A DNA stretch of 64,000 nt from an uncultured Actinomycetota bacterium (GCA_964515075.1 CAZETE010000003.1:14254-78253); one strand, 5' to 3'. Positions 42,392 through 63,931 are shown, numbered from the stretch's first letter. The notes: generated by a model from the sequence alone, not told the origin. Made by a program: numbers and translations.

Positions 42392-42392
42392 G

Positions 42393-45125: not shown

Positions 45126-45148
45126 AACCTCCCTACCTCCGTTCCACG

Positions 45149-45310: not shown

Positions 45311-45931
<621 letters not shown>

Positions 45932-45937
45932 GGTCCC

Positions 45938-46579
45938 TTACTCCTTTCCGCTGAAGTCCTTAACGAACCTGACCGCGTCCATGGCGTCGTTGCTCCAGGC
46001 GTCCGCCCCCGCGTACTCGCAGAGGCGCCCGGAGGCGGCGCCGCCTCCCAGCATTATCCTCACCCGCCCGCGCAGGCCGGCCCGCTCGAGCTCGGAAACC
46101 GTCTCCAGGATGGGCTCGTAAGCCACGGTGAGCAGCACGCTCATGCCCACCACCGCCGCGCCCGACTCCTCCACCGCCCGCACGAAGCGCGCGGGGGCGA
46201 CGCTCACCCCCAGGTCGAGCACCTTATAGCCCGAGCAGAGCAGGAGCATGGTGACGATGTCCTTGCCGATGTCGTGCACGTCGCCCAGGGGCGCCCCCAT
46301 GATCACCGGGACCTCCTCCCCCGTCCCCCCGGGCACGAAGCCGCCGGATCCCTCCAATAAGGACATCACTTCCTTGAAGATCTCTCCCGACATGATCAGG
46401 GCGCTCAGGTAATACTCCCGGCGTTCGTACTTCTCCCCCACCACCTCCATGCCCCGGCGGCAGACGTCGATGATCCCCAGGGGCTCCGCGCCCGCCGCGA
46501 GCATGCGCCGGACCGTCCCGAGGACCCGCTCCTCCTCCAGGTCGACCATGGCCTCGAGCAACGCGTCTTCCAAGCGCAT
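45938..46579 (-). CDS. Corrinoid (B12-binding) methyl-carrier protein 2
   Basis: GDVHDIGKDIV, DLGVSV, GMSVLL, LGGG. Confidence 0.92.
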   Translation of the reverse strand: MRLEDALLEAMVDLEEERVLGTVRRMLAAGAEPLGIIDVCRRGMEVVGEKYERREYYLSALIMSGEIFKEVMSLLEGSGGFVPGGTGEEVPVIMGAPLGDVHDIGKDIVTMLLLCSGYKVLDLGVSVAPARFVRAVEESGAAVVGMSVLLTVAYEPILETVSELERAGLRGRVRIMLGGGAASGRLCEYAGADAWSNDAMDAVRFVKDFSGKE

Positions 46580-46592
46580 CTCCCCTCCCCCT

Positions 46593-47369: not shown

Positions 47370-47392
47370 CCTCCGCCCGCCTTCCTCCTGCC

Positions 47393-47430
47393 TTGACAAC
47401 CGCCGCTGATTTGTATATATGTATATACAA
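47393..47430 (+). promoter_or_regulatory. Sigma70-type promoter with overlapping HutC-type operator
   Basis: TTGACA 47393-47398; perfect inverted repeat TTGTATATA-TG-TATATACAA 47411-47430 containing GTATATAC (matches the HutC consensus GTMTAKAC). Confidence 0.75.
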
Positions 47431-47475
47431 GTTATAGCAACGGGAGGCTAGGCTGTCAAGCCGGGGAAGGGGAGG

Positions 47476-48621: not shown

Positions 48622-48637
48622 GCAGGAAAGGACGGCC

Positions 48638-49768
48638 ATGAAAGCCAAGGAGAGGATAGACACCGCGATACGCCTGGGCAAGCCCGACCGCATACCGGTG
48701 GTGCCCATGATCGACAGCTTCGCGGCACGCTATGCCGGCGTGACCCAGCACGACATGCTCTTCAACATCTTCCGCTCCGACCGCGCCTTCCTGCGCGTCC
48801 ACCGCGAGCTGGGCCCCATCGACGGCTTCAACTACTCCAACGCCGGGCTGGCCCGGCTGATGGACTCCCTCTCCATCATCCCCCCCATCTGGCCCGGGGT
48901 GGGCGGGGTGGACGAGAACGCCCTCTGGCAGTTCGTGGAGAAGACGGTGATTAAGCCGGAGGACTACCCCGCCCTGGCCGCGAAACCCGGGGCCTTCATG
49001 CGCGACAAGGCCATCGAGCTGCGCTCCGAGCTCAAGGGCCTGTGCGGCTTCTACCTCTACAAGGCCCTGGGCTTCCTCGACGGCCTCAAGGTGATGCTCT
49101 CCTGCCGGATCTGGCGGATGCGGGGCATCGAGCCCATGGTGGGGGCGAACAACATCCTCTTCCCCCTGGAGCAGATCTCCACCCAGCTCCGCTCCTACTC
49201 CGACTTCGTCACCGACCTCTACCGCCACGGGGAGGACCTCAAGCGGGCCGCCCACGCCATGCTCAAGACCTGGTTCCCGCTCTGCCTGGCCGGGCCTTAC
49301 ATCTCCGGGGTGCGGCGCGCCCTCATCGGCATGACGCGCACCAGCGCCACCCTGATGTCGCCCCGGCAGTTCGAGGAGTTCGCCCTGCCCGACCTGGAGG
49401 AGCTGTGCGCCTACCTCATCCGGCACGGCATCACCCCGGTGCTCCACCTGGACAACGAGTGGACCGCCTTCTTCCCCTTCTTCCGCCGCCTGCCCCGGGC
49501 GAAATGCGTCCTCAACCTGGACGGCTCCTCCGACATCTTCGCCGCCAAGGAGGTGCTGGGCGACCACATGTGCATCATGGGGGACGTGCCGGCCACCCTG
49601 CTCAAGCTGTCGGAGCCGGAGGAGGTGGAGGCATACTGCGAGCGCCTCATCCGAGAGGTCGGGGCGGACGGGGGGTTCATCCTCTCCTCCGGCTGCGACA
49701 TCCCCATCGACGCCAAGCCGGAGAACGTCCGGGCCATGCTACAATCGGTGCATAAGTTCAAATATTAG
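48638..49768 (+). CDS. URO-D-family protein, likely MT1 B (tandem paralog)
   Basis: Same motifs as 47476-48621; colinear along its full length. Confidence 0.8.
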   Translation: MKAKERIDTAIRLGKPDRIPVVPMIDSFAARYAGVTQHDMLFNIFRSDRAFLRVHRELGPIDGFNYSNAGLARLMDSLSIIPPIWPGVGGVDENALWQFVEKTVIKPEDYPALAAKPGAFMRDKAIELRSELKGLCGFYLYKALGFLDGLKVMLSCRIWRMRGIEPMVGANNILFPLEQISTQLRSYSDFVTDLYRHGEDLKRAAHAMLKTWFPLCLAGPYISGVRRALIGMTRTSATLMSPRQFEEFALPDLEELCAYLIRHGITPVLHLDNEWTAFFPFFRRLPRAKCVLNLDGSSDIFAAKEVLGDHMCIMGDVPATLLKLSEPEEVEAYCERLIREVGADGGFILSSGCDIPIDAKPENVRAMLQSVHKFKY

Positions 49769-49819
49769 AGGGGCGCCGGGCTCGGGAGCCCGGGACGCCG
49801 CGGGAAGAAGGGGGAGGCC

Positions 49820-50641
49820 GTGTTCTTTCGCAAGACCAAGTGGAGATTCTTCCTCTACGCGCTGCCCTTCTGGCAGCCGCTGACGGACAGGTGGGCCTCC
49901 GTCACCAACTGGCCCATCGTCGGCAAGGCCTCACAGTACCTGCACAACGACGAGCACTACGACGTGACCTTCATCCCCGTGAACCAGGACATCGAACAGG
50001 ACCCCTCCACCGTCCTGCCCCGCCAGGTGGCGGAGGAGATGTGCCGCCGCGCCGCCCACCGGGTCATCCTGCCCATCTGCCTCTGCCGGGTGGGATGCCG
50101 CTGCCAGGACCACCCCATGGAGATCGGCTGCATCTTCATGGGCGAGAGCGCCAAGCAGATCGACCCCAGCATGGGCCGGGCGGTCTCGGTGGAGGAAGCC
50201 ATGGAGCACATCGACCGGGCCATCCGGTCCGGCCTGGTGCTGCAGATCGGGCGGGTGGACGCCGACCCCTTCATGCTGGGCATCAAGCCCCGCGACCGCG
50301 ACCGCTTCCTCACCCTCTGCTTCTGCTGCCCCTGCTGCTGCGTGGCCATGCGCAACATGCCCCGCTGGGCGCCGGAGTTCAAGGCGCGCATGCACGCCCT
50401 GGAGGGATTGAGCATCGAGGTGACCGACGATTGCAACGGCTGCGGCCGCTGCGTCGACGCCTGCTTCGCCGGGGCCATCTCCATCGAGGGGAAACGGGCA
50501 GTCATCAGCGACGCCTGCAAGGGGTGCGGCATCTGCGCCTCCACCTGCCCCCGCCACGCCGTGGTCGTCCGGGTGGAGGACGGCAACCGCATGCTCGAGG
50601 AGGCCTTCCGCCGCATCGAGCGCTACGCCGACGTCACCTGA
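49820..50641 (+). CDS. Cys-rich 4Fe-4S dicluster protein
   Basis: CLCRVGCRC, GCIF, CFCCPCCC, CNGCGRCVDAC, CKGCGICASTCP. Confidence 0.85.
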   Translation: MFFRKTKWRFFLYALPFWQPLTDRWASVTNWPIVGKASQYLHNDEHYDVTFIPVNQDIEQDPSTVLPRQVAEEMCRRAAHRVILPICLCRVGCRCQDHPMEIGCIFMGESAKQIDPSMGRAVSVEEAMEHIDRAIRSGLVLQIGRVDADPFMLGIKPRDRDRFLTLCFCCPCCCVAMRNMPRWAPEFKARMHALEGLSIEVTDDCNGCGRCVDACFAGAISIEGKRAVISDACKGCGICASTCPRHAVVVRVEDGNRMLEEAFRRIERYADVT

Positions 50642-50688
50642 GCTTGCGCCCGCCTCCCTCCGTGCCCCCTTGAACCCGGCGGGCACGA

Positions 50689-50721
50689 CCCCGCAGGCGG
50701 GCTGGGAGGGATCCTGCGGGG
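50689..50721 (+). terminator. GC hairpin after the 4Fe-4S gene
   Basis: CCCCGCAGG (50689-50697) pairs with CCTGCGGGG (50713-50721). Confidence 0.4.
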
Positions 50722-50810
50722 CGCCGGTCCCGGCCCCTCCTGGGCCGGTGCGGCCCGATGGCGTTATAATGCTGGTAGCCGGAGCAGGGCAGGAGCAGGA
50801 AGGACAGGGC

Positions 50811-51275
50811 ATGGAAGGGCAGCAGGTGAGTCAGGAGCCGGCGCCGCAGGCGCAGGATGGGGTGAGCGGGAAGAAGGTGGCGCTCATCTTCTTCCTCATC
50901 TTTTTGGGCCTACTGGCCATCGCGGGCGCGGCCTTCGGCATCTATGTCTGGCGCTTCAACGCCGCCATAAACGACATCTCCATCGAGCCCGTCGACCTCC
51001 TGCAGCTGCCGGACGGCGCCTACTTCGGCAACCGGAGCGTCTTCCACGTGGAGGTCTCGGTTAGCGTCGTGGTCAAGGCCCACCAGATCGTGGCCATCGA
51101 CGTGCTGGACGCGGGGTCCACGGGCAACGGCGGCCAGGGCAAGGAGAACCTGGACCTGCTCATCTCGCGGATCATCGAGTCGCAGGACGTCCGGGTGGAC
51201 ACGGTCAGCGGGGCCACCGCCACCCAGAAGGTCTTCTTGAAGTCAGTGGAGGGGGCCCTGACCCGCGGGGACTGA
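50811..51275 (+). CDS. Membrane-anchored FMN-binding (flavinylated) protein
   Basis: One TM helix, then DGAYFG...VDTVSGAT flavinylation motif; TATAAT at 50765-50770; start reset to ATG 50811. Confidence 0.85.
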   Translation: MEGQQVSQEPAPQAQDGVSGKKVALIFFLIFLGLLAIAGAAFGIYVWRFNAAINDISIEPVDLLQLPDGAYFGNRSVFHVEVSVSVVVKAHQIVAIDVLDAGSTGNGGQGKENLDLLISRIIESQDVRVDTVSGATATQKVFLKSVEGALTRGD

Positions 51276-51319
51276 CGGACGGGGCGCCCGCCCGGAGAAA
51301 CCCCGCCCGGACGGAGGGG

Positions 51320-51787
51320 GTGAGCCCGCTGAACGGGGCAGTCGTTTACTGCGGCAGGCACGACAGCTTGAGAAAGCTGGCCGAGGGCATCGCCGGCGGC
51401 CTGGCGGAGTCGGGTTACGTCGTATCCTTGATGGAGGCGGAGTCGGTGGAGCACCTCGACCCCGACCTGGTCTTCCTGGTGGTGGGCTCCCCCGCCCGCG
51501 CCGGCAGGGCGGCGAGGGCCCCCTCGAGGCTCATCAAGCGCCGGATGGGCGGGGGGTGGGCGGGCAAGCCCTATGCCGTCTTCGCTACGGGCATCCGGGA
51601 CGGGGGCGGCGAGCCGCAGTCCAAGGGGGCCGACCAGCTCCACCGGCTGCTGCGGGAGCGCGGCCTGCTCCCGCTGGCGGAACCCTTCAAGGCCTGCGTA
51701 CAGGCGGCGAAGGGGCCGCTGGAGGAGGGCGAGTTCGAGCGTGCCGTCCAGTTCGGCAGGGACCTCGCCGCCGCCCTGCGCCGCTGA
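51320..51787 (+). CDS. Flavodoxin-like protein
   Basis: VVYCGRHDSL..LAEGIA, VVGSP, YAVFAT, GPLEEGE.ERA..FG. Confidence 0.7.
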   Translation: MSPLNGAVVYCGRHDSLRKLAEGIAGGLAESGYVVSLMEAESVEHLDPDLVFLVVGSPARAGRAARAPSRLIKRRMGGGWAGKPYAVFATGIRDGGGEPQSKGADQLHRLLRERGLLPLAEPFKACVQAAKGPLEEGEFERAVQFGRDLAAALRR

Positions 51788-52004: not shown

Positions 52005-52784
52005 GTGGCCGTAGGGGAGATCCTCCGCATCGACCGGGCCCCCTCCATGCCCGACCTGGTGGCCGGGCGCATCCGGGACATGATCGCCTCCGGAGCCCTT
52101 GAGCCCGGCGACTGCATCCCCCCCCAGACCGCGCTGGCCGGACAGATGGAGGTGAGCCGCGCCAGCGTGCGCGAGGGGCTCAGGTCCCTGGAGGCGGGGG
52201 GGTACATCCAGAGGCTGCCCAACGGCAGGTACCGCGTCACCGCCCTCACCGGGGGCCGGCTGCCCAACCCCCTCCTGGCGGTGCTCAGGTCGGACCCTTC
52301 GCTGGTGTGGGACCTGCTGGAGGCGGCGGAGGTGATGGTGGTGGAGGCGGTGCGCCTGGCGGCGGTGCGCGCCGGCGGAGAGAGCATCCGGAAGATGGGG
52401 GAGACGGTGCGGCAGATGGAGGAGTGCAGCCGCAGCCGCCGCCGCTTCGTGCGCGAGTTCATCCGCGTTTACTCCAATTTCTACGAGGCGCTGGCCGGCG
52501 CCACCGGCAACGTCGTCTACCTCCACCTGGGCCACGCCTTCCTGGAGGTGCTGGCGGAGGCCCTGCCCTACCCGGACAAGCTCTTCCTGGTGCAGGCCGA
52601 CATCTCCACCGTGCTCTACCGCCAGCACCTGGACATCTGGGAGGCCCTGCGGGACGGCGACCCGGGAGCGGCCGCGGCCGCCTTCCGGCGCCACCTGGGC
52701 TTCATCGAGGAGAAACTGCGGATGATCCTGGGGGCGGATGAAGGCCGGAACGCGAAGCCGGCCCTGGACCAAGGGGGTGGATGA
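52005..52784 (+). CDS. FadR-subfamily GntR regulator
   Basis: I..G.LEPGD.IP....LA.QM.VSRASVREGL; FCD domain with ATGN and H..I..A. Confidence 0.92.
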   Translation: MAVGEILRIDRAPSMPDLVAGRIRDMIASGALEPGDCIPPQTALAGQMEVSRASVREGLRSLEAGGYIQRLPNGRYRVTALTGGRLPNPLLAVLRSDPSLVWDLLEAAEVMVVEAVRLAAVRAGGESIRKMGETVRQMEECSRSRRRFVREFIRVYSNFYEALAGATGNVVYLHLGHAFLEVLAEALPYPDKLFLVQADISTVLYRQHLDIWEALRDGDPGAAAAAFRRHLGFIEEKLRMILGADEGRNAKPALDQGGG

Positions 52785-54040
52785 TGGGTTACGCGGACGT
52801 CTTTCCGCGGCTTTCAGCCGGGGTGTCCCAGGCCGACCTGGCCCTGGCCCGGGCCTTGCGGGACTGGGGGGAGAACGAGGTGGCGGGCAAGCGCCTGGAG
52901 TTGAAGGAGGACTACGAAGGGCTGCTCAAGCCGGCCATGCGCAAGCTCTTCTGGGATATCGGCATGCAGAAGATCGCCTGGCCGGAGCGGCTCGACGGGG
53001 GCGGCCAGGACACGCCGGACCTGGCCCCGACCATGGCGACGGCCCTGGAGGAGATCGGCCGCGCCGACACCGGCATCGCCTGCCTGCTCGCCGTCGACCT
53101 CGCCTTGAGCGCGGCGGTGGCCATGCCCCCGGGTCCGCCCGGGGCCCTGCTGGAGAGGATGGCCGGCGATTTCTGCCGGTCCGGCAGGGCGGTCGTCGTC
53201 TCGCTGGTCCTTCCGGCCCTGGGGGGCAGGGCCGCCGGCAGCCTGGGCGAGTACCGCGGCAAGACCGTCCCCCTGGCCAGGCCGGAGGGCGGAGGGTGGG
53301 CCGTGGACGCGCGGGGCCTGCGCCCCTTCAACTCCGGGGCCGACGCCGACTTCTTCTGCGTGGCCTGTTCCGCCGCCGAAGGCGAATCCCCCCTGCTGCT
53401 GATGGTCCCCGGCGACGCGGCGGGCCTCAAGCGCGGGGCGGAGTTCAAGAAGACCGGGCTGGCCGCCAGCCGCAATGCCGACATAGACCTCGAGAACGTG
53501 AAGGTACCGGCGGAGCAGGTGCTGCTGCGGGGGGAAGCGGCCTGGCGCGGGCTCCTCTCCTGGCTGTGCCTGGGGATGAGCGCCACCTGCACCGGCGCCC
53601 TGCTGGCCGCCTACGAGATCATCCGGGAATGGGGGGACACCCGGGTGATCAAGGGGCGGGGGTGCGCCTTCCGGGACAACCCCCTGACCGCCTCGCTGAT
53701 GGCGGAGATCGCCACCACCGCGACGGTGGCGCGCCTGCTCACCGGCTCGCTGTCCCAGCTGCTGGCCGAGCCTTCCGTCCACGGGGACGCCGGCTCCGAG
53801 AGGGTCTGGGCGGCCGCCTGGGGCGTTTTCAACCGGGTGAGCGCCTCGGCGGAACAGGCCATCGACAACACCATGGAGCTGATGGCCTCGGCCGGCTACG
53901 CCAAGGAGTGGCAGCTGGAAAGGTACTGGCGCGACGTCAAGACCGTCGCGGTCAGCATGGGCAGCCGTGAGCTGGGCAAGATGGACCTGGCCCGCTGGTT
54001 CTACGGGGCCCGGCCGCTGGGAGGAGGTGGAGGGGAATGA
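52781..54040 (+). CDS. Degenerate acyl-CoA dehydrogenase-fold protein A
   Basis: WPERLDGGG, EEIGRAD, MELMASAGYAKEWQLERYWRD; TEP and YEG motifs absent. Confidence 0.85.
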   Translation: MMGYADVFPRLSAGVSQADLALARALRDWGENEVAGKRLELKEDYEGLLKPAMRKLFWDIGMQKIAWPERLDGGGQDTPDLAPTMATALEEIGRADTGIACLLAVDLALSAAVAMPPGPPGALLERMAGDFCRSGRAVVVSLVLPALGGRAAGSLGEYRGKTVPLARPEGGGWAVDARGLRPFNSGADADFFCVACSAAEGESPLLLMVPGDAAGLKRGAEFKKTGLAASRNADIDLENVKVPAEQVLLRGEAAWRGLLSWLCLGMSATCTGALLAAYEIIREWGDTRVIKGRGCAFRDNPLTASLMAEIATTATVARLLTGSLSQLLAEPSVHGDAGSERVWAAAWGVFNRVSASAEQAIDNTMELMASAGYAKEWQLERYWRDVKTVAVSMGSRELGKMDLARWFYGARPLGGGGGE

Positions 54041-55311
54041 GGCTGCGCACCATCGACGATATCACCCGGCCGCGGGAGTACCTCTCCCCCCTGGACGAGT
54101 ACCTGGGGGGGATCATCCGCAAGTGGGCCGACACGGAGGTCATCCCCCACCGGCGCCGTTACGACGAGGACTGGAAGGACCACGAGCTCATCGAGCCCGC
54201 CTTCCGCAAGCTGATGGGGGAGATGGGCCTGCAGCGCCTGCTCTTCCCCGAGGACCTGGGGGGCTGGGGCATGGGCCACTCGGACTACCTGGGCACCGGG
54301 GCCTACCGCATGTTCGAGGAGGTCGCCCGGGCGGACTCGGCCATGGCCGTCGCCTTCGGCGTGGTCTTCTGGCCGCTGGTGATGATCTGCAACGAGCCCC
54401 ACGTCAACCGGCGGCTGTGCGAGGAGTTCGCCCCCCTCTTCTGCTCCACCACCGAGGCGGTCTTCGCCGCCAACGCCATGACCGAGCCGCAAGGGGGGGC
54501 GGACATCGAGAACGTGGAGGTCCTCGGCGGCTCCACCATCCAGACCACCGCGGTGAGGGACGGGGACGAGTGGGTGATCAACGGCCACAAGCTCTGGCCC
54601 ACCAACTCGGGCGGCGTCTCCAGCCTCTTCTCGGTCATCTGCACCACCGATCCCGGCGTCAACGACCCCGCCAACTTCGCCTTCATCTTCGTCCCGGCAG
54701 GCCTGCCCGGGGTGACCCAGGGCGGGCCCTACGAGAAGGCGGGCATGGCCGCGGACAAGAACGGCGACATCTGGTTCGAGAACGTGCGGGTGCCCTCCTG
54801 GTACCGCGCCTTCGGGCCGGGGCTGGACTTCGAGTACTTCAAGGAGGTGGTGGCCCTGGGCAACATGGGCTCCGTCGCCTTCGTCTCCGGCGCCATGATC
54901 AACGTCTACGAGCGGCTCTACGACTTCGTCACCGAGCACAGCTTCGGGAAGAGGGCCTTAAAGGAGCACGACGCGGTGGCCGGGGTGCTGGCGGACTTCG
55001 CCGCCTCCCTGGAGGTCATCCGCATCGTCGGCTACCAGCTGGCGCGGATGATGGACCGCCCGGACGTCTACGGTCCGCGCTGGGCGGCGGAGAACGTGGC
55101 CAAGGGGCGCGCCTACAAGTACTTCGCCTGCGACCGCGCCATGACCGAGATCGGCCGGGTGCTCAACCTGATGGAATCGCTGGGGGCGGACCGCGACTCC
55201 GACGTCGAGAAGCACTGGCGCGACCTGAAGATCGTCCAGCTGTGGATGGGCGGCAAGCAGCTCTGCCAGATGGAAGTGGCCCGCTGGTTCTTCGAGTGCG
55301 AGACCCTCTAG
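54037..55311 (+). CDS. Acyl-CoA dehydrogenase-fold protein B
   Basis: FPEDLGG.G, EEVARADS, AMTEPQGGAD, INGHKLWPTN, EKHWRDLKIVQLWMG. Confidence 0.92.
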   Translation: MRLRTIDDITRPREYLSPLDEYLGGIIRKWADTEVIPHRRRYDEDWKDHELIEPAFRKLMGEMGLQRLLFPEDLGGWGMGHSDYLGTGAYRMFEEVARADSAMAVAFGVVFWPLVMICNEPHVNRRLCEEFAPLFCSTTEAVFAANAMTEPQGGADIENVEVLGGSTIQTTAVRDGDEWVINGHKLWPTNSGGVSSLFSVICTTDPGVNDPANFAFIFVPAGLPGVTQGGPYEKAGMAADKNGDIWFENVRVPSWYRAFGPGLDFEYFKEVVALGNMGSVAFVSGAMINVYERLYDFVTEHSFGKRALKEHDAVAGVLADFAASLEVIRIVGYQLARMMDRPDVYGPRWAAENVAKGRAYKYFACDRAMTEIGRVLNLMESLGADRDSDVEKHWRDLKIVQLWMGGKQLCQMEVARWFFECETL

Positions 55312-55325
55312 GCGGTGATGCGGCC

Positions 55326-56003
55326 ATGCAGGAGACGACCAGGCAGGCCGGCATGGTGGACGCCGCCAACCGCGTCGCCCGCGAGCTGCTCCGGACCCCG
55401 CGCTTCAAGGAGGGCCTCAAGATGGTGCTCGACTCGCTGGACCCGGAGTCCGCGCCGGAGCTGGTGCGCACGCTGGTCTGGGAGGATACCGACGTCTTCC
55501 TCTCCCTGGCCGGCTCGCTGCCCCGGCTCCTGAACATCTTCTTTTACGCCTTGAAGGAGCTGGCGGAGCAGCTGGGCAGCTTCCCCCCGGAGATGCTCTC
55601 CGGCTTCCTGGCCGGGGCCGTGGAGGGCCTGGAGGGAGAGGCGCTGGGGGAGGCGCTGGGGAGCGCGGCGCGTCTCCTCGCCCGGGTGTCGGAGGCGTCC
55701 GGCGAGAGGGTGCCCCGGAGCGCCGGGGAACTCGCCCGCTCGGCGGGCCGGGGCTTCGCCGGGGCCCGCCATCCCGGCGGGCAGGCCGAGGAGCCCTCCC
55801 CGGCCGCGGCTGCGCTGGCCGCCGTGAGCCGGGCGGTCAAGGCCGCGGCGGCGGCGGCCGCGGTGGAGGGCTCTCCCGCCCGCCGGGCCCTGAAGGCCTG
55901 CGCGGAGGACCTGGCCGGGGCCGTGCGGGAGCACCCGGAACTGGTCCGGGAGGCGGCCCCCGTCCTCGAGGCCCTGCGCGCCGCGGGCTGGGGGGTGGCG
56001 TGA
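55326..56003 (+). CDS. Unknown all-helical protein H1
   Basis: Start reset to ATG 55326; N-terminal half aligns by eye with 56003-56746. Confidence 0.75.
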   Translation: MQETTRQAGMVDAANRVARELLRTPRFKEGLKMVLDSLDPESAPELVRTLVWEDTDVFLSLAGSLPRLLNIFFYALKELAEQLGSFPPEMLSGFLAGAVEGLEGEALGEALGSAARLLARVSEASGERVPRSAGELARSAGRGFAGARHPGGQAEEPSPAAAALAAVSRAVKAAAAAAAVEGSPARRALKACAEDLAGAVREHPELVREAAPVLEALRAAGWGVA

Positions 56004-56746
56004 TGGAGAAGACGGTGCCGGCCGCGGGCGCGGAGACCTCCGGAGCCCTGCCGCGGGTGATGCGGGAGCTCATCCGCACCCCCGTGTTCCGGGAGCTGCT
56101 CAAGCTGAACCTGCGGGAGGCGCCCCACGGCAGCGCCGCGGAGCTGGCGCGGGTCCTCGTCTTCGAGGACGTAGACATCTTCCTGAGCCTGTTCGGCTCA
56201 TCCCCCCAGGCCGTCAACTCCGCAAGCGAGTTCCTGCTGGAGCTGGCGCGGCAGCTCGAGAGCTTTCCCCCGGAAGTGCTGCGCGCATTCATCCGGCGCA
56301 TGGGCGCCAAGGTCGAGGTGGAAGCCGTCAAGGCCCTGCCGGGGGCCGTCTCGCCCCTCTTCGACGCCCTGCTCTGGAGCGATGCAGCCGCGGTGCAGGG
56401 CCTGCGCGACCTGCTGGCGGCGGCGGCCAACGCTGCCCTCTGGGGCGGCGCGGACGTCCTCAAGCGCCTGGAGGAGGCCCCGGCCGGCGGCGGGCGTCGG
56501 CCCGGGCTGGACGCCGAGGCGGTGGCCGAACTGATCAACGCGGGAGCCCGCACCTTCGGCATGGCCGCCTCCTCCCGCCCCGCCTTCCTGGCCGAGGTGG
56601 CCACCCACCTCGACCGCGAGGCCCTGCGCGCCGCGGCCGACGGGGCGCTCGACGCCGTCTCGGAGGCCGGCATCTCCGTGGTGGCGGCGTTCTCCTGGGC
56701 CCTGAAGGCGGCCTGGAAGATCATTAAAGGTAAGCTTAAGAGTTAG
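56003..56746 (+). CDS. Unknown all-helical protein H2 (paralog of H1)
   Basis: TGATG coupling to H1; shares REL.RTP.F.E.L..SA.EL.R.LV.ED.D.FLSL.GS.P..N..L.ELA.QL.SFPPE.L with H1. Confidence 0.8.
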   Translation: MEKTVPAAGAETSGALPRVMRELIRTPVFRELLKLNLREAPHGSAAELARVLVFEDVDIFLSLFGSSPQAVNSASEFLLELARQLESFPPEVLRAFIRRMGAKVEVEAVKALPGAVSPLFDALLWSDAAAVQGLRDLLAAAANAALWGGADVLKRLEEAPAGGGRRPGLDAEAVAELINAGARTFGMAASSRPAFLAEVATHLDREALRAAADGALDAVSEAGISVVAAFSWALKAAWKIIKGKLKS

Positions 56747-56816
56747 CTATATTGGCTGAGGGCGGTGGTCCCTGCCGGCCCGGACCCGGACGGGGACCCC
56801 ACCGAGAGGAAGGCAG

Positions 56817-58337
56817 GTGGTGGCGTTGTCCGAGAAGGACCAGGCCCGGGAGAAGACCAAGGATTACCGGAGAGAGGTGAGGAAGGAGGTCAAGGACCTG
56901 CTGGGGCTGCTCGAGGCGGCCGAGAAGGCCCCGGCGGGAGAGGTCCTCTACGGAGGAAAGGCCGCTTTGGGGCGCGAGGCGCTCCTGGCCCTCCCCCGCC
57001 TGCTCAAGATTTACCTTCAACTTATGGTTGATGCTTCCGACTACCTGACGGGCCTGCCGGAGGAGGAGTGGAAGTCCTTGGAGGACGCCGCCCTGGCCTC
57101 GCTGGAGGAGATGCCCCTGGGGGAGGCGGTGAACGCCTATTTCCGCCTCTCGCGCAGGCTCTGGGAGGAGGACGCGGAGGCGCTGGCGGAGGCGGAGCTC
57201 GGCCTGGCCGCCGCGGCCATCGAGCGCATCGACTTCGGCAAGGTGCGCAAGGCCGTGGAGGTGAAGCTTGAGGGGCGCTACCCGGTCTACGCGGGGGTGA
57301 TCGACCGCCTGGTGGGAGACCCCATCATCATCGCCAACCTGCTCACCGCCGCTCCGGCTTACGCCAACACCCTCCTCCGCCTGTTGAACAGGGTCCTGGC
57401 CGGCCTGGACCTGCCGTCGGAGATCCTGGCCTCGGCCATCTTCAACCTGCTCGAGGCCCTCGACGTCGAGGAGGCGGGGCGGGTGGCCACGGGGATCTCC
57501 CAGGTCGTCAAGTCCCTGCACGAGGGCAGCCTGGTGCTGGGCTTAAACGAGCCCCGCTTCCGCGAGGTGGCCGAGCGGCTGGTTGAGCGCTTCCTCTCCT
57601 CCGCCGACTGGCAGTCCGGCTACGAGGCGGTGGCGGCGCTCTCCGAGAACCTGGAGGTGCTCATCCGGGTCATGGCGGACTCCGCCGTCTCCCGCCCCGA
57701 GTTGATGGCGGCCGGAGCATCCTGCGCCGCCCGCTCCCTGGGCTCGCTCATCCGCGGCCTCTCCTATTCCGCCCGCCGCCTGGAGGTCCTGCCCGACGCC
57801 TTCTTCGAGACGTGGGGCCGCGCCGTCCTGGACCACGCCGAGCTTCGCGAGCTGGGCGAGCTGGTCAACTCCCTGCTGGTGGCACACAACCGCCTGGCGG
57901 ACGCCAACCCGGGTATGCTGGGGGAGGCCCTGGACCGGGCCTGGAGCGGCATCGACCCGGAGGAGCTGGGCCGGGCCGCCCGGGAAGGCATGCGCCAGAC
58001 CTTCGGCTGGCTGCTCAGGCAGGACCCCGCCGGGCTCTTCGAGCCGGGCGAGGCGGGGCGCCTGCTCAACGAGCTCATCGCCGCATACAACCGCTCCCCG
58101 GCCTTCTCGCCGGGCGCCTTGCGCGATTACCTGGGAAGCGTCCTGGGTCAGTTGGACCCGCAGGAGCTGGGCCGGGCCCTGGACTCCGCCGCCTCCCAGG
58201 TGGTGGAGGCGGTCACCGCCGAGCCGGCGCTGGCGAGGGTCTTGATGCGCTCCGCGCTGGGGGCGTTGTGGAAGGCGTTCAAGGGGACGGCGGGCGCGCT
58301 GCTCGCCGCCTGGAGGGGCCGGAAGGCGGGTGGTTGA
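56817..58337 (+). CDS. Unknown helical-repeat protein H3
   Basis: 506 aa; internal repeats IDPEELGRA / LDPQELGRA / LDVEEAGRV and LGEAVN / LGELVN / AGRLLN. Confidence 0.8.
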   Translation: MVALSEKDQAREKTKDYRREVRKEVKDLLGLLEAAEKAPAGEVLYGGKAALGREALLALPRLLKIYLQLMVDASDYLTGLPEEEWKSLEDAALASLEEMPLGEAVNAYFRLSRRLWEEDAEALAEAELGLAAAAIERIDFGKVRKAVEVKLEGRYPVYAGVIDRLVGDPIIIANLLTAAPAYANTLLRLLNRVLAGLDLPSEILASAIFNLLEALDVEEAGRVATGISQVVKSLHEGSLVLGLNEPRFREVAERLVERFLSSADWQSGYEAVAALSENLEVLIRVMADSAVSRPELMAAGASCAARSLGSLIRGLSYSARRLEVLPDAFFETWGRAVLDHAELRELGELVNSLLVAHNRLADANPGMLGEALDRAWSGIDPEELGRAAREGMRQTFGWLLRQDPAGLFEPGEAGRLLNELIAAYNRSPAFSPGALRDYLGSVLGQLDPQELGRALDSAASQVVEAVTAEPALARVLMRSALGALWKAFKGTAGALLAAWRGRKAGG

Positions 58338-59451
58338 GGTGGAGAAGATGCAGGGCTTGGCGAGCGTGCTCGAGAACGACTACGTGAAGAAGGCCAAGGC
58401 GGAGGGCGTCCCGGTCGTCGGCTACGCCTGCCTGGCCACGCCGCGCGAGATCTTCGACGCCGCCGGCATACTCCCCTACCGCCTCAGGGGCATGTCGGTG
58501 TCCCGCACCGAGCTGGCCGATGCCTACCTCTCCCGCTTCAACTGCGGCTTCTGCCGCTCCTGCCTGCAGCTGGCCCTGGACGGCAGCTACGGCTTCTTCG
58601 ACGGGCTGCTGGAGACCAACGGCTGCGACCACCTGCGCGGCATGTTCGAGAACTGGCAGTACGCCCACCCCGAGGAGTTCTTCCACTACCTGCGCGTCCC
58701 CCACCTCACCGACGAGGAGTCTACGGACTGGTTCGCAGAAGAGCTCGGCCTCTTGAAGGAGGCGCTCGAGGACCGCTTCGGGGTGTCCATAAGCGACGCC
58801 GACCTCTCCGCGGCCATGGACCGGCAGGCCTCCATCGCCCGGAAGCTCCGGGACATCTACGAGAGCCGCTGGGGCGACCGCATCAAGGTCAGCGGCGGCG
58901 AGATCCTCCAGCTGATGGTGCTGGAGGGGTCCATGCGTCCCGCCGACTTCTCCGCGCTGCTGGACGAGTTCGCCGCGGAGCTGGAGGAGCGCCAGCCCCT
59001 GGAGTACCGGGCGCGCATCTTCATGGGCGGCTCAGCCACCGACGAGGTCGAATTGCTGACCGAGCTGGAGGCCCTGGGAGGGGTGGTGGTGGCCGACTCC
59101 TTCTGCTTCGGCGGGCGCATCTTCCGCAACGGGGAGGAGCCGGAGGGCTCCCCCCTCGAGCGGCTGGCCCGGCGCTACCTGCACAACCTGATGTGCCCGC
59201 GCATGTTCGACGACTACGCGCGGCGCAAGGCCTTCATCGACGGCCTCATCTCCGGGTCACGGGCGGACGGCGCCATCCTCTTCCACAACAAGTTCTGCGA
59301 CGTGCACGGGGTGGAGAACGTCAAGCTGCGCATGGACCTGGAGAAGGAGGGGCTGCCGGTGCTCACCCTGGAGAAGGAGTACGGCGCCTCGGCGGACATC
59401 GGGAGGCTCAAGACCAGGGTGCAGGCCTTCCTGGAAAGACTGAGGAAGTGA
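58330..59451 (+). CDS. 2-hydroxyacyl-CoA dehydratase / benzoyl-CoA reductase family subunit (beta/BcrC-like)
   Basis: VGY....PREIFDAAG, three cluster Cys (FNCGFC, NGCD, KFCD), VVADSFC.G.R, RLKTRVQAFLE. Confidence 0.88.
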   Translation: MVEVEKMQGLASVLENDYVKKAKAEGVPVVGYACLATPREIFDAAGILPYRLRGMSVSRTELADAYLSRFNCGFCRSCLQLALDGSYGFFDGLLETNGCDHLRGMFENWQYAHPEEFFHYLRVPHLTDEESTDWFAEELGLLKEALEDRFGVSISDADLSAAMDRQASIARKLRDIYESRWGDRIKVSGGEILQLMVLEGSMRPADFSALLDEFAAELEERQPLEYRARIFMGGSATDEVELLTELEALGGVVVADSFCFGGRIFRNGEEPEGSPLERLARRYLHNLMCPRMFDDYARRKAFIDGLISGSRADGAILFHNKFCDVHGVENVKLRMDLEKEGLPVLTLEKEYGASADIGRLKTRVQAFLERLRK

Positions 59452-60923
59452 CGGCCGTGACCGACGTACTCATCAAGGAGCATCAGGGCCTCTACGACCG
59501 GGTCTATTCCCTCTTCTCCATCGTCGGCAGGCTGAAGGAGGAGATGAGCCCGGAGGAGGTGGAGGGGATGCTCAGGGTGCTTCCCCCCGACACCTACAAG
59601 GCCCTCAAGTCCATGCTGCGCCAGGACCTCCTGCCCGCCACCCTGGCCTTCATGCGCATGCTCAAGGCCTGGATGGACGAAGCGGTGCGGGCGCGGGAGG
59701 AAGGCAGGAAGGTCATCCTGGTGCCCTTCAACTTCCCCCCCGAGCTCATCCACTCCTTCGAGGGGGCCTTCCCCCTGACCAGCGAGGTCCTCTCCACCCT
59801 GGGGGTGGTGGCGCTGGAGGGCCAGGGCGAGCGCTACTGGGACTACGCCATGGGCCTGGGCCTGCCCGACCACCTCTGCTCCTCCAACACCATCGCCCTG
59901 GGGAGCATCCTCACCGGGTCCGACTTCTCGCCGGACGCCATCGTCTCCTCCGCCGCGGGCGCCTGCGACGTCAACGCCATGGTCCACGAGTTCGTCGCCC
60001 ACCTGCTGGACGTCCCCCACATCATGCTGGAGAAGCCGGGGGACAGCGGCCGCCGGGGGCGGGAGCTCTTCGGCCGCTACTACCGGCGGATGGTCCGGCA
60101 GCTGGAGGAGTTCGTCGGCGAGGAGCTCGAGGCGGACAACCTGGAGGTGGTGGCGGAGAAGAGCAACCGCTGCACCGAGCTCTATTACGACCTCTGGGAA
60201 CTGCGCAAACAGATCCCCTCGCCCGTGCCGGCCATCTTCGCCCTCTACACCTACGCCACCCGCTTCACCATGTGGGGGCGGGACGAGGGCATCGCCTGCC
60301 TAGAGGCCTGCGTCGACGTGGCCCGCCGCAACCTGGAGAGGGGGACCTTCCCCGCCGCCGGAGAGGTGGCCCGCCCCCTGTGGATCTACCTCCCCTACTT
60401 CTTCGACTTCGTGGGCTTCTTCGACTGGATGGAGTCGCGCAACATCGCCAACATGGGCGACGTGCTGATGTGCTGCTTCCCCTCCAGGGTGGACACCTCC
60501 TCCAAGGAGGCCATCCTCGACGGCATGTGCGAGGCGGCCTGGAACATGCCCATGACCCGCCAGATGGGCGGCGACGTCATGTCCCAGCGCTGGCTCTCGG
60601 ACATCGTCTACACGGTGAAGGAGCTCAACTGCAACTGCGCCATCTACTGCGGCCACCACTCCTGCAAGCAGACCTGGAGCGTCTTCTCCCAGGTGCGCAA
60701 CGAGATAACCCGCCAGGCCGGGGTGCCCACCCTGTGCCTGCAGGGGGACACCTGGATCGGGCGCACCACCCCCATCAGCGTCATCCAGGAAGAGATCGCC
60801 ACCTTCGTGGACAACGTGGTGGCCGGGGGCGGCCGGCGCCGCCGGCGGAGCAGGGCGAAAGCCGCGGCCGGCGCGCCCGCGAAGCCCGGCGAGGCGGAGG
60901 CCGCCGGGGAAGAGGCGGGATGA
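59448..60923 (+). CDS. 2-hydroxyacyl-CoA dehydratase family subunit (alpha/BcrB-like) 1
   Basis: Start reset to GTG 59448 (GTGA overlap); PPELIHSF, DHLCS, GACD, HSCKQ, PTLCLQGD. Confidence 0.88.
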   Translation: MTAVTDVLIKEHQGLYDRVYSLFSIVGRLKEEMSPEEVEGMLRVLPPDTYKALKSMLRQDLLPATLAFMRMLKAWMDEAVRAREEGRKVILVPFNFPPELIHSFEGAFPLTSEVLSTLGVVALEGQGERYWDYAMGLGLPDHLCSSNTIALGSILTGSDFSPDAIVSSAAGACDVNAMVHEFVAHLLDVPHIMLEKPGDSGRRGRELFGRYYRRMVRQLEEFVGEELEADNLEVVAEKSNRCTELYYDLWELRKQIPSPVPAIFALYTYATRFTMWGRDEGIACLEACVDVARRNLERGTFPAAGEVARPLWIYLPYFFDFVGFFDWMESRNIANMGDVLMCCFPSRVDTSSKEAILDGMCEAAWNMPMTRQMGGDVMSQRWLSDIVYTVKELNCNCAIYCGHHSCKQTWSVFSQVRNEITRQAGVPTLCLQGDTWIGRTTPISVIQEEIATFVDNVVAGGGRRRRRSRAKAAAGAPAKPGEAEAAGEEAG

Positions 60924-62341
60924 GGAGAGCGGTGGTCGAGGTAGGGCGGCAGGCCGGCGACGGCCTCTTCAGGCGGGTGGAGAACCTGGTCAAGGTGGCG
61001 ATGCGCCTGCCCGACGACTTAAGCGACGAGGAGGCCGAGGGCCTGGTCCGGGCGCTGCCGGCCGACACCGCCCGCAACATCGCGGCCATGCTCCACCCGC
61101 GCTTCCGCCCGGTTTCCATCGCCTTCATGAAGATGGTGGGGCGGTGGATGTTCGAGGGCAGCCGGGCCGGGGAGGAAGGGATGAAGGCCGTCCTCATCCC
61201 CTTCAACTTCCCGCCCGAGGTCATCCGCATCTTCCGCCGGGCCCGCCCCCTCACCTGCGAGTTCCTCACCACCGTGGGAGTGGCCATGCTGGAGGGCCAG
61301 GGCGAGCGCTACTGGGACTTCGCCATGGGGCTGGGCATCCCCGACTTCCTCTGCTCCTCCTCCACCATAGAGCTGGGATCCATCCTCTCCGGCTCCGACT
61401 TCTCCCCCGACGCCCTGGTGCAGTCGGCGCCCGGCGCCTGCGACGCCAACTCCAAGATCCACGAGTTCGTCTCCCGCTACATGGGGGTGCCCCAGTTCGT
61501 CGTCGAGAAGCCGGTGGATGGCGGGGCGCGGGGCAGGGAGCAGCACCGCCGCAGCTTCCGCCGCTTCATCCGGGACCTGGAGGAGTTCACCGGCGAGGAG
61601 CTGGACGAGGGGCACATGCGCGAAGTCCTTACGCGGGCCAACCAGGCGGCGGAGCTCTACTACGACCTCCACGAGATGCGCAAGGCCGCCCCCTGCCCGG
61701 TGCCCAACATCATCTCTCTCTACACCTACGGGGTCCGCTTCACCACCTGGGGCACCCGGGAAGCGGTGGAGATGATGCGCATGATGGTGGAGCTGGCGCG
61801 GGCGCGCCTGGAGAAGGGGGAGTACCCGGCCGCCGAGGAGGTGGCCCGCTGCATGTGGCTGTACATCGGCTACTACTACGATTTCATGGGCTTCTTCAAC
61901 TGGATGGAGGAGAACGGCATCACCTACCTCAACGACATCCTCTCCCTCTGCCAGCCCCTGCGCATCGACACCACCTCCAGGGAGAGCATGCTGGACGGCC
62001 TGGCCGAGGCGGTCTTCGAGTACCCCATGACCCGCCAGATGGGAGCGGGCTCCATGTCGGAGTCGTGGGTGGAGGACATGTCCCGCTTCATCAAGGAGCT
62101 GGGGGCCAACTGCGCCGTCTACTCCGGCCACCACGCCTGCAAGCAGACCCAGAGCATCATCGGCCGGGTGCGGGAGGAGATCGTCAGGCGCACCGGGGTC
62201 CCGGTGCTCTGCCTCACCGGCGATTCGTGGATACGCAGGATGACCCCCACCGGCGTGCTGCAGGAGGAGCTGTCTTCCTTCGTGGACAACGTGGTGGCGA
62301 AGAAGAAGGCGCGCCGCCGCAAGGCGGCCGGCGTAGAGTAG
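60920..62341 (+). CDS. 2-hydroxyacyl-CoA dehydratase family subunit (alpha/BcrB-like) 2
   Basis: Start reset to ATG 60920; PPEVIRIF, DFLCS, GACD, HACKQ, PVLCLTGD; full-length paralog of 59448-60923. Confidence 0.88.
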   Translation: MRRAVVEVGRQAGDGLFRRVENLVKVAMRLPDDLSDEEAEGLVRALPADTARNIAAMLHPRFRPVSIAFMKMVGRWMFEGSRAGEEGMKAVLIPFNFPPEVIRIFRRARPLTCEFLTTVGVAMLEGQGERYWDFAMGLGIPDFLCSSSTIELGSILSGSDFSPDALVQSAPGACDANSKIHEFVSRYMGVPQFVVEKPVDGGARGREQHRRSFRRFIRDLEEFTGEELDEGHMREVLTRANQAAELYYDLHEMRKAAPCPVPNIISLYTYGVRFTTWGTREAVEMMRMMVELARARLEKGEYPAAEEVARCMWLYIGYYYDFMGFFNWMEENGITYLNDILSLCQPLRIDTTSRESMLDGLAEAVFEYPMTRQMGAGSMSESWVEDMSRFIKELGANCAVYSGHHACKQTQSIIGRVREEIVRRTGVPVLCLTGDSWIRRMTPTGVLQEELSSFVDNVVAKKKARRRKAAGVE

Positions 62342-62354: not shown

Positions 62355-63152
62355 ATGGCCAAGCGCTATGGAGGCATCGATGTCGGCTCCCTCTCCGCCC
62401 AGGCGGTGATCCTGGAGAACGGCTCCATCCGGTCTTATTACACCATGCCGGTGAAGCCCAACCCGCTGGACTCGGCGACCAGCGTGCTGTACCTGGCCCT
62501 GGAGGCGGGCGGCCTGGAGCCGGGCGACCTGGCCTTCACCGTCAGCACCGGCTACGGCAGGGAGCAGGTCCAGAAGGAGGGCCTCTCGCAGGCCAACGTG
62601 AGCGAGATCTCCGCCCACGGCAAGGGGGCGCACTGGCTGCTGCCGGCAGCGCACACCATCATCGATATCGGCGGGCAGGACGCCAAGGTGATCCGGGTGG
62701 ACCGGGACGGCGAGCTGGTGGACTTCGTCATGAACGACAAGTGCGCGGCGGGGACCGGACGCTTCCTGGAGGTGATGGCCCGCACCCTGGGCGTCTCCCT
62801 GGAGGAACTGGGCCCCCTCTCCTTCAAGGCCCGCAACCCCATCGAGCTCTCCACCCGCTGCAGCATCTACTGCGAGACCGAGGCCCTCCACTACCTGCAG
62901 CGCGGGGTGGAATCGGCGGACATCGCCGCCAGCGTCAACCGCACCATGGCCGAGCGGGTGCTGGCCCTGGTGCGCCGGGTGGGCATGGAGAAGGAGGCCA
63001 CCATGACCGGCGGGGTGGCCAAGAACGTGGCGGTGCGCAAGGAGCTGGAGCGCCTCATCGGCTCCCGGCTGCTCGAGTACGACGTCGATTCGCAGATCGT
63101 GGGGGCGCTGGGAGCGGCCCTCATCGCCAGGGAGCAGGGGGGCGGCCGATGA
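62355..63152 (+). CDS. ATP-dependent electron-transfer activase (HgdC/BcrA/D-type ASKHA) 1
   Basis: GIDVGS, TGYGR, EISAH, DIGGQDAK, MNDKCAAGTGRFLE, RCSIYCETE, TGGVAKN. Confidence 0.93.
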   Translation: MAKRYGGIDVGSLSAQAVILENGSIRSYYTMPVKPNPLDSATSVLYLALEAGGLEPGDLAFTVSTGYGREQVQKEGLSQANVSEISAHGKGAHWLLPAAHTIIDIGGQDAKVIRVDRDGELVDFVMNDKCAAGTGRFLEVMARTLGVSLEELGPLSFKARNPIELSTRCSIYCETEALHYLQRGVESADIAASVNRTMAERVLALVRRVGMEKEATMTGGVAKNVAVRKELERLIGSRLLEYDVDSQIVGALGAALIAREQGGGR

Positions 63153-63931
63153 TCACCATGGGGGTGGACGTGGGCAGCCTCTTCTCCAAGGCGGTGATCC
63201 TGCGCGACGAGGAGATGCTGGCCGGCGAGGTCCGCGAGACCACCGGCAACGTGGCGCGGGAACTGGACGGCCTCATCGCGGCGGCGCTGGACCGGGCGGG
63301 CATCGGCCCGGGGGAGGTGGAGGTCTGCGTGAGCACCGGCACCGGGGGTGACCTGGTCAAGCCGGCCGAGTTCGACGAGGACGACGTGGCCTGCCTGGCC
63401 ATGGCCTGCCGCCACTTCCTGCCGGAGGTGGCGGTGGTGGTCAACATCGGCGGGCAGTCCATCGCCACGGTCCTCTCCGACGCCGAGGGAGAGGTGCTCG
63501 ACTTCATGCGCAACGACAAGTGCGCCTCCGGTTCGGGGCGCTATCTCGAGGTGATGAGCGCCGCCCTGGGGGTGCCGGTGGACATGATCGACGCCACGGC
63601 CGAACGGGCGGAGCGGCGCATCTCCATCAGCTCGCAGTGCGGGGTGTTCGCGGAGAGCGAGATCGTCTCCCACGTCAACCAGGGCGAGCCGGTGCCGGAC
63701 ATCGTGGCCGGGCTCTGCGACTCGGTGGCCTCCATGGTCATCTCCCAGGCCATGCGCTTCGGGGGCGGCGGCGACTACACCATCACCGGCGGGGTGGCCC
63801 GCCTGAAGAGCGTGACCGGCATGATGCAGGAGAGGATGCGCGGCACCTATCACCCCTTCCCCATCGACCCCATGCTAGCCGCCGCCTTCGGGGCCGCCCT
63901 CATCGGCGGCCTGGAAGAGCTGCCCGAGTAG
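63149..63931 (+). CDS. ATP-dependent activase 2 with degenerate nucleotide motifs
   Basis: GVDVGS, STGTGG, NIGGQSIA, NDKCASGSGRYLE, SSQCGVFAESE, TGGVAR; start reset to ATG 63149. Confidence 0.9.
   Translation: MITMGVDVGSLFSKAVILRDEEMLAGEVRETTGNVARELDGLIAAALDRAGIGPGEVEVCVSTGTGGDLVKPAEFDEDDVACLAMACRHFLPEVAVVVNIGGQSIATVLSDAEGEVLDFMRNDKCASGSGRYLEVMSAALGVPVDMIDATAERAERRISISSQCGVFAESEIVSHVNQGEPVPDIVAGLCDSVASMVISQAMRFGGGGDYTITGGVARLKSVTGMMQERMRGTYHPFPIDPMLAAAFGAALIGGLEELPE

Follow-up and report, generated by a model that had tools for sequence, protein, structure and literature searches.

Three helical proteins of a conserved gene cluster in uncultured anaerobes as candidate architectural subunits of a benzoyl-CoA reductase/2-hydroxyacyl-CoA dehydratase-type enzyme

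The stretch of DNA analysed here (the window) comprises 64,000 nucleotides (nt) from an uncultured Actinomycetota bacterium (GCA_964515075.1, CAZETE010000003.1:14254-78253), has a GC content of about 70%, and carries at positions 55326-58337 three genes for helical proteins, which we call H1, H2 and H3 and which are the subject of this report. Together with a regulator gene, two genes for proteins resembling acyl-CoA dehydrogenases (ACADs), three genes of the HGD-D family and two genes for BcrAD-type ATPases, they form one tightly packed operon on the + strand:

52005..52784, + strand: GntR/FCD regulator, directly 5' of the module; in several relatives a GntR or TetR regulator lies at the same place.
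52781..54040, + strand: ACAD1, a divergent ACAD-like protein and partner of ACAD2, without a residue equivalent to Glu376 of medium-chain acyl-CoA dehydrogenase (MCAD).
54037..55311, + strand: ACAD2, a highly conserved ACAD-like flavoprotein with Met at the position of the catalytic Glu376 of MCAD.
55326..56003, + strand: H1, 225 amino acids (aa), all-alpha, with an N-terminal motif (N-motif) and one strong helical unit (aa 37-121); acidic, without a basic tail.
56000..56746, + strand: H2, 248 aa, a paralogue of H1 with a hydrophobic and basic C-terminal helix; its GTG start overlaps the stop of H1 (GTGA).
56817..58337, + strand: H3, 506 aa, with at least four helical units and a basic tail; the BzdN-like gene already starts within its last 8 bp, so that stop and start overlap.
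58330..59451, + strand: HGD_A, an HGD-D family subunit; among solved structures, BzdN of class I benzoyl-CoA reductase (BCR) is nearest to it.
59448..60923, + strand: HGD_B, an HGD-D large subunit (HadB/BzdO-like) that starts with GTG, in overlap with the stop of HGD_A.
60920..62341, + strand: HGD_C, a paralogue of HGD_B present only in Actinomycetota-type clusters; its ATG start overlaps the stop of HGD_B.
62355..63152, + strand: Act1, an ATPase of the BcrA/BcrD/HgdC type.
63149..63931, + strand: Act2, a second, different BcrAD-type ATPase.

Stop and start codons overlap at six junctions of this operon (ACAD1/ACAD2, H1/H2, H3/HGD_A, HGD_A/HGD_B, HGD_B/HGD_C and Act1/Act2). An earlier reading made from the sequence alone (the sequence-only reading) had placed the three genes at 55326-58337 inside an enzyme operon; its coordinates proved exact, and the coding signature is typical of the genome, with a GC content at third codon positions (GC3) of 0.92-0.96 for H1, H2 and H3, solely in the stated frame. 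Long spurious open reading frames (ORFs) are common in DNA of high GC content, and several occur on both strands of the H1-H3 region. That H1-H3 are themselves such artefacts is nevertheless refuted and has practically no probability left, as the GC3 signature is confined to the proposed frames, orthologues in conserved order are present in four phyla in genomes of 44-70% GC, a profile search found 336 clusters of the family, and AlphaFold returned a confident model. At the end of the H2 coding sequence and in the first part of the 70-nt spacer that separates it from H3 (56720-56816), the DNA is unusually rich in AT for this genome (AAAGGTAAGCTTAAGAGTTAGCTATATTGG), and a stem-loop in the spacer has a predicted stability not above that of shuffled sequences (z = -0.36).

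H1, H2 and H3 are paralogues of one helical unit of about 85-120 aa, of which H3 has at least four. The common N-terminal region that the sequence-only reading had noticed in H1 and H2 shows 51% identity over 97 aa (E 1e-22), and the homology reaches further when the two family profiles are compared, with about 190 columns aligned (probability 99.9, E 3e-34). In addition, the H1 family profile matches H3 at 22-134 (E 5e-10; in a separate comparison 16-127, E 3e-9) and again at 163-238 (E 1e-9), the H2 profile matches H3 246-490 (E 1e-12), and the halves of H3 match one another in two registers (E 4e-10). It follows from these mutual profile matches that all three proteins are built from one unit. 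A hidden Markov model (HMM) of the unit was trained partly on H3 152-234, so that its match there is circular and is not evidence; independent support comes from the other profile comparison. A segment of H3 that had been described as related (GDPIIIANLLTAAPAYAN...LPSEILAS) is real by the matches of the H1/H2 profiles and is the best preserved of the H3 segments, and the D.EELG-type repeats ascribed to H3 were borne out as well, given that five copies of the capping motif [DEP]xxE[LA]G were counted where 0.24 are expected, a number that 0 of 5000 shuffles reached. Two types of H protein can thus be told apart. The H1/H2 type, of about 170-270 aa and placed between the ACAD pair and H3, is marked by the N-motif R(V/I)hRELhRTPxF...LDPExA...T(L)xWED (in H1, RELLRTPRFK...LDPE...WED), followed by P...N and FPxxhL, and the H3 type, all-alpha, of about 430-600 aa and situated directly 5' of a BzdN-like HGD-D gene, by the motifs DFG(K/E)xxK/R, (D/Y)Pxxxxxxhhxxx-P-xxx-N, LPxE(I/L)LA and LHxGxxxLGxxxPxF. 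The window's proteins show the features of their respective types.

The family is new, and neither its sequence nor its predicted fold has a known relative. Neither Pfam nor NCBIfam holds a match for H1-H3, with nothing in Pfam even at E <= 1, and no Pfam family recurs consistently among 58 members of the H3 family. A word-indexed search of 5.8 billion proteins returned 12 close homologues of H3 and nine of H2, all of them unnamed, and an exhaustive profile search extended the H3 family to 336 clusters (50% identity), all of them 'hypothetical', with E <= 1e-30 for 113. Based on an alignment of 150 sequences, AlphaFold modelled H3 as an all-alpha protein of 21 helices (pLDDT 90.7, pTM 0.75), for which Foldseek found no chain of the PDB at E <= 10 and only noise among the viral models of BFVD. 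An earlier model from 12 sequences (pLDDT 67) had led Foldseek to F-BAR, ESCRT-III and axonemal coiled coils at E > 1, and these hits were discarded as meaningless; likewise, a sequence-profile search of the PDB with H3 gave noise only (retroviral capsid C-terminal domain, E of about 0.2). A match to a known enzyme or regulator family, which would have spoken against the sequence-only reading, came out of none of the Pfam, NCBIfam and Foldseek searches, and full-text searches of the literature found no description of the cluster. In being all-alpha, cofactor-less and made of tandem helical units, and in a presumed task of holding partners, the H proteins recall HEAT/ARM scaffolds such as the A subunit of PP2A. 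This likeness lies in the working principle only: the HEAT/ARM unit has about 40 aa, whereas the H unit is more than twice as long and has motifs of its own (P...N, LPxE(I/L)L, DxEELG), and the H proteins gave no match to a Pfam repeat and no Foldseek match in the PDB that would assign them to HEAT, ARM or TPR repeats, whose units span about 34-45 aa.

About 38 loci with members of the family were gathered and their gene order was mapped by tblastn and by HMM (individual loci are designated L with a number below). The sources are metagenome-assembled genomes (MAGs) of uncultured anaerobes from four phyla, namely Actinomycetota (Ca. Geothermincola primus and secundus, Anoxymicrobiaceae and others), Bacillota (Syntrophomonadaceae, Dethiobacteria), Myxococcota and Desulfobacterota. 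The order ACAD1, ACAD2, H1, H2, H3, HGD_A, HGD_B, (HGD_C), Act1, Act2, CdhC-like protein, MinD-like ATPase is nearly invariant. In about 25 loci an orthologue of H1 separates ACAD2 from H2, and wherever the sequence continues beyond H3 (about 35 loci, four phyla), the next gene is the BzdN-like one, frequently with overlapping stop and start codons. H proteins were never found outside the module in the approximately 38 loci, in keeping with the co-occurrence with HAD/ACAD-type clusters for which the sequence-only reading had suggested a check. The core of the module consists of H3, a BzdN-like subunit with one or two HadB/BzdO-like ones (two or three HGD-D subunits in all), a pair of BcrAD-type ATPases, the CdhC-like Cys protein and the MinD-like ATPase, and in four loci (L012, L034, L035 and L038) it is reduced to this core (H3, HGD, HGD, Act, Act, CdhC-like, MinD-like), with neither ACAD genes nor a separate H1 or H2; the H3 proteins of these loci form a more distant subfamily. 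By contrast, each of the approximately 27 loci with an ACAD pair has one or two extra H units, with no discordant locus, where the co-occurrence is understood as that of separate H1/H2 genes or strong copies of the N-motif. H2 and H3 are fused in one ORF of 470-600 aa in nine loci (L008, L010, L013, L014, L016, L017, L025, L030 and L036), and about 55 of some 148 representatives of the H3 family carry the H1/H2 N-motif at their N-terminus, that is, belong to the H2-H3 fusion type. Such fusions are Rosetta-stone evidence which suggests that H2 and H3 act together. The H proteins are at the same time the fastest-evolving genes of the module: identity to the window's proteins is 24-50% for H3, 30-44% for H2 and 31-51% for H1, against 68-84% for ACAD2, 48-75% for HGD_A and 55-81% for Act1.

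A few loci depart from the common pattern. L004 and L005 are two contigs of the MAG MFD04716.bin.2.264, in which the whole cluster is present twice, and their H3 proteins are 73% and 72% identical to that of the window; several genes of these contigs are in pieces, probably through frameshifts that are assembly errors. In L038 (4207-13323, Desulfobacterota-type), the HGD-HGD-ATPase set is duplicated after the CdhC-like gene, with one H3 gene only. Three genes of the HupE/UreJ family of Ni/Co transporters lie a few kb upstream of the ACAD-less module of L034 (4724-6541), and may or may not be related to the CdhC-like protein.

The enzymes beside the H genes match known families strongly. HGD_A is closest to BzdN (PDB 8s02, E 5e-41) and obtains its best NCBIfam score from the double-cubane reductase model, and HGD_B and HGD_C are HadB-like; the HGD scores fall far under the NCBIfam equivalog cut-offs (174 vs 350; 129 vs 454). 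The catalytic partners are deeply divergent new members of the known superfamily of BCR and 2-hydroxyacyl-CoA dehydratase (HAD). Activators of dehydratases are homodimers, whereas benzoyl-CoA reductases have a heterodimeric pair of BcrAD-type ATPases, and the two distinct ATPase genes of the module are BCR-like in this respect, unlike dehydratase activators. In the ACAD pair (window and L006-L037), the position of MCAD Glu376 is occupied by Met in ACAD2 and by Met, Leu or Val in ACAD1, and neither protein has a Glu at the alternative position in helix G. Given that ACAD2 is nonetheless the most conserved gene of the module, with 68-84% identity across phyla, its strong conservation without the catalytic base suggests a non-classical role for the ACAD-like flavoprotein. 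No gene for a CoA ligase, a CoA transferase or an electron transfer flavoprotein is present in the module. Every complete module ends with a gene for a CdhC-like protein of about 240 aa, which resembles the middle domain of acetyl-CoA synthase (ACS) and has an extra, invariant CxxCx5C motif, and a gene for a P-loop ATPase of the MinD/ParA/Mrp type. In addition, clusters of the Myxococcota type have a gene for a polytopic membrane protein of 690 aa, with weak matches to STT3 and AglB_L1, between HGD_A and HGD_B. In relatives of the window, these genes are found as follows:

L001 17116-17853, L007 14758-15480 and L034 15657-16394: CdhC-like gene, at a place that would lie just past the end of the window (after 63931).
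L039/L040 13133-15205: polytopic membrane protein; a corresponding gap lies in L026 (12183-14330) and in L028.

Given this context, we see an even chance that H1-H3 are dedicated, non-catalytic architectural subunits of an enzyme of the BCR/HAD superfamily that depends on ATP and has yet to be characterised, with H3 as the platform and H1 and H2 as adaptors. The place of H3 in the invariant core, the overlap of its stop codon with the start of the next gene, the lack of cofactor motifs and the fast evolution are best explained in this way. As H1/H2 copies accompany the ACAD pair and H2 is often fused to H3, these two proteins may serve to dock the flavoprotein on the H3 platform. In the most likely arrangement, H3 would bind the Fe-S (HGD) subunits as a helical platform, and H1 and H2, as adaptor copies, would dock the heteromeric ACAD-like flavoprotein onto it, which would allow the flavin enzyme and the Fe-S enzyme to exchange an acyl-CoA intermediate or electrons. 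The C-terminal helices of H2 and H3, which are basic and aromatic, would either grip a partner protein or anchor the assembly at the membrane. That the H proteins are physically part of a complex, that H1 and H2 act as adaptors, and that channelling and tethering to the membrane take place are steps that we infer from sequence and gene order. The paralogy of the H proteins fits a pseudo-symmetric pairing of the enzymes of the operon (ACAD1/2, HGD_A/B, Act1/2). The sequence-only reading had proposed lipid- or membrane-binding scaffolds of apolipoprotein or phasin kind, or substrate carriers; of this proposal, the part that gains support from the genomes is that of cofactor-less accessory proteins dedicated to a HAD/ACAD-type cluster, and the kinship to apolipoproteins or phasins is not supported.

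The residues of H3 support the architectural reading in part. The columns that are at least 90% invariant among 150 sequences (D139, G141, N184, G237, G242 and D264) look structural rather than catalytic, and conservation in the H proteins falls mostly on Gly, Pro, Asp and Asn residues located at the ends of helices. The Cys/His counts are 1/2 in H1, 0/2 in H2 and 1/3 in H3, with no Cys/His cluster in any of them, and no stretch of 19 residues reaches transmembrane (TM) grade (maximal Kyte-Doolittle mean 1.5), as the sequence-only reading had maintained for both features. Several points weigh against a purely architectural role. The best-conserved block of H3, aa 139-250 (DFGKxRK, DPIIIANL..P...N, LPSEILASAxFN, LHEGxLxLGxxEPRFR), contains strongly conserved polar residues (D139, K142, R144, E202, S206, N210, H235, R247 and R249) and could, beyond forming an interface, be a ligand- or CoA-binding or a catalytic site. 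Profile comparison also revealed that the H3 proteins of the ACAD-less subfamily have a TPxF N-motif of their own, in diverged form, so that the N-motif is not purely an ACAD-docking element, and the idea that it is strictly linked to ACADs was dropped. Furthermore, maturation factors share operons with their clients too.

The polar block is also the basis of the view that H3, and perhaps H1 and H2, is a substrate- or CoA-binding, catalytic or regulatory subunit acting through DFGKxR ... LHEG ... EPRFR, which might for instance gate the docking of the ATPase or bind the CoA moiety. In favour of this view, which we hold to be quite unlikely, aa 139-250 are strongly conserved even in the ACAD-less subfamily (DFGELKE, PDLLADV, RKLHTGSALLGEPG), and the conserved Arg and Lys could bind phosphates; the protein nevertheless resembles no known enzyme, nucleotide-binding or CoA-binding fold, its invariance of 90% or more is restricted to Asp, Gly and Asn positions, and a metal-ligand pattern is absent.

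The tail of the module bears on a further possibility, namely that the H proteins are assembly or maturation chaperones which, with the MinD/Mrp-like ATPase and the Cys protein of CdhC type as helpers, would hold the apo-HGD subunits for insertion of an Fe-S cluster, possibly a double-cubane one, and would remain outside the mature enzyme. In favour of this model, the core always includes the P-loop ATPase and the small protein with the invariant CxxCx5C motif, and the best NCBIfam score of HGD_A is that against the double-cubane reductase model; a helical, cofactor-less and fast-evolving character is typical of chaperones too. We judge it improbable all the same, as three paralogues, one of them of 506 aa, are an unusually heavy outlay for such a function, an Fe-S maturation factor would not be expected to co-vary strictly with the ACADs, which carry FAD, as H1/H2 do, and H3 is translationally coupled at the head of the catalytic genes and not beside the ATPase at their tail.

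The C-terminal tails concern the question of whether the H proteins bind membranes or lipids, either to hold the enzymes at the membrane or to bind and present a hydrophobic acyl-CoA or lipid, in the manner of exchangeable apolipoproteins, phasins or the helical C-terminal domain of very-long-chain acyl-CoA dehydrogenase (VLCAD). H2 ends in a hydrophobic, basic helix (FSWALKAAWKIIKGKLKS), and what is conserved in the H2 and H3 families is a reversal of charge, with a basic, Trp/Phe-containing tail on an acidic body: the median charge is -17 for the body and +6 for the last 30 aa in the H3 family, and -5.5 and +5.5, respectively, in the H2 family. H1 has no basic tail. The amphipathic, basic, Trp-containing tails that had been claimed for H2 and H3 are therefore present, basic and conserved in their charge reversal, whereas their amphipathicity was rejected as a special feature, the hydrophobic moment being 0.50 for the tails and 0.48 for internal helices. 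The H2 orthologues of L007 (6638-7459) and L032 (9125-9946) have an extra hydrophobic stretch at the C-terminus (ILIYGAVALIFAPLFI / IMIFALAAAVCAPLFW), followed by basic residues, and this extension looks like a tail anchor.

Part of this evidence, namely the charge reversal with its +5 to +6 tail and the TM-like stretch ILIYGAVALIFAPLFI on the two H2 orthologues, speaks for membrane or lipid binding, as does the STT3/AglB-like polytopic protein of the Myxococcota-type clusters; moreover, other enzymes of the BCR/HAD superfamily (PlsA/PlsR, Ger) act on membrane lipids. The H1 family profile also gives scores against ApoA-IV (9hx4, 3s84; E 0.0012) and apolipophorin-III (E 0.096). The ApoA-IV score, which comes from the Ala/Leu/Glu-rich C-terminal half of H1, probably reflects composition, because designed helical repeat proteins score equally against the same profile. 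In Pfam, the apolipoprotein family (PF01442), Phasin/Phasin_2 and DUF1641 (PF07849), the last of which had been named as a family to check, had no match at E <= 1 in H1-H3 or in the 58 family members, there was no Foldseek neighbour, and no genes of polyhydroxyalkanoate synthesis were noticed in the loci examined. Furthermore, internal helices are as amphipathic as the tails, anionic membranes would repel bodies of such acidity, H1 lacks the tail altogether, and the compact, confident AlphaFold model of H3 (pTM 0.75) speaks against a floppy exchangeable bundle that binds lipid. We thus consider a primary role in membrane or lipid binding possible and on balance unlikely; it is compatible with the scaffold role and does not exclude it, and membrane tethering as such is weakly supported.

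In comparison with described systems, the module is like class I benzoyl-CoA reductase (BcrABCD / BzdNOPQ), HAD (HadBC + HadI) and the double-cubane reductases in that its partner genes belong to the same superfamily, and it has two different BcrAD-type ATPase genes, as BCRs do. H1-H3 are homologous to none of the four known types of BCR/HAD subunit by Pfam and NCBIfam, and none of the described BCR, HAD or double-cubane cluster protein (DCCP) enzymes is known to have helical subunits like H1-H3, a Cys protein like the ACS middle domain or a MinD-like ATPase as fixed partners. H1 shares its Ala/Leu/Glu-rich helices with exchangeable apolipoproteins (ApoA-IV, apolipophorin-III) and phasins, but no match in family or in fold was obtained, and the predicted H3 is compact and confidently folded. 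VLCAD and ACAD9 have, on an enzyme of ACAD fold, an all-helical C-terminal domain which is thought to bind membranes. H1 and H2 likewise occur only together with the ACAD-like pair, but they are separate proteins and not a domain of the ACAD, and searches of the PDB revealed no sequence relation of the H proteins to the VLCAD domain, as VLCAD was returned for ACAD2 alone. Heteromeric alpha2beta2 acyl-CoA dehydrogenases are also known from steroid catabolism (ChsE1-ChsE2, FadE26-27). Like these, ACAD1 and ACAD2 are adjacent, translationally coupled paralogues, one well conserved and one degenerate; unlike these, both lack the canonical Glu, are tied to a BCR/HAD-type enzyme and occur in strict anaerobes.

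Upstream of the operon, at 44298-51787, the window carries a set for corrinoid-dependent methyl transfer beside the module, in a flank that also includes a GntR/UTRA regulator, a Cys-rich 2x[4Fe-4S] protein, an FMN_bind protein with an N-terminal hydrophobic helix and a flavodoxin-like protein. This corrinoid/URO-D flank is common only to the closest relatives (L001, L004 and L005) and is therefore placed outside the conserved module. The genes of the flank are listed below, followed by the housekeeping genes that lie further upstream:

44298-45194, - strand: pterin-binding methyltransferase.
45311-46606, - strand: two B12-binding proteins.
47476-49768: two URO-D-like paralogues.
39474-43937, - strand: GlcD/GlcF-like FAD and CCG oxidoreductase genes (housekeeping, upstream).
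32712-39294, - strand: fatty-acid synthesis genes, accA-like, biotin carboxylase, FabH, FabG and accD-like (housekeeping, upstream).

BCR/HAD-type 'archerase' enzymes carry out reductions and dehydrations that are among the hardest known in anaerobes, and few types have been characterised. The present study defines a conserved module of 7-12 genes in at least four phyla of uncultured anaerobes, Geothermincolia-like Actinomycetota among them, in which the catalytic core is always paired with a protein family that lies outside Pfam and NCBIfam and has no structural neighbour in the PDB. The module would represent an enzyme of BCR/HAD type whose helical subunits have no precedent. Going further, and as a tentative suggestion that is more likely to fail than to hold, H1-H3 may be the architectural signature of an unrecognised multi-enzyme machine with a novel fold and a chemistry new to both enzyme families. 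In such a machine, an ATP-driven Fe-S reductase or dehydratase of the BCR/HAD type would be physically coupled to the Glu-less ACAD flavoprotein and to the Cys protein resembling an acetyl-CoA synthase domain, possibly at the membrane. It might, for example, use ATP to energise a transfer of electrons that is tied to the acyl-CoA metabolism of syntrophic anaerobes living under energy limitation, or modify a lipid-like thioester.

With a confident model at hand, the H3 family merits a family entry of its own as a new domain of unknown function (DUF). If the H proteins are indeed subunits, they would be markers of a whole enzyme clade, interactions would be predicted between H3 and the HGD subunits and between H1/H2 and the ACAD pair, and the H proteins could be exploited as handles for the purification and imaging of the complex.

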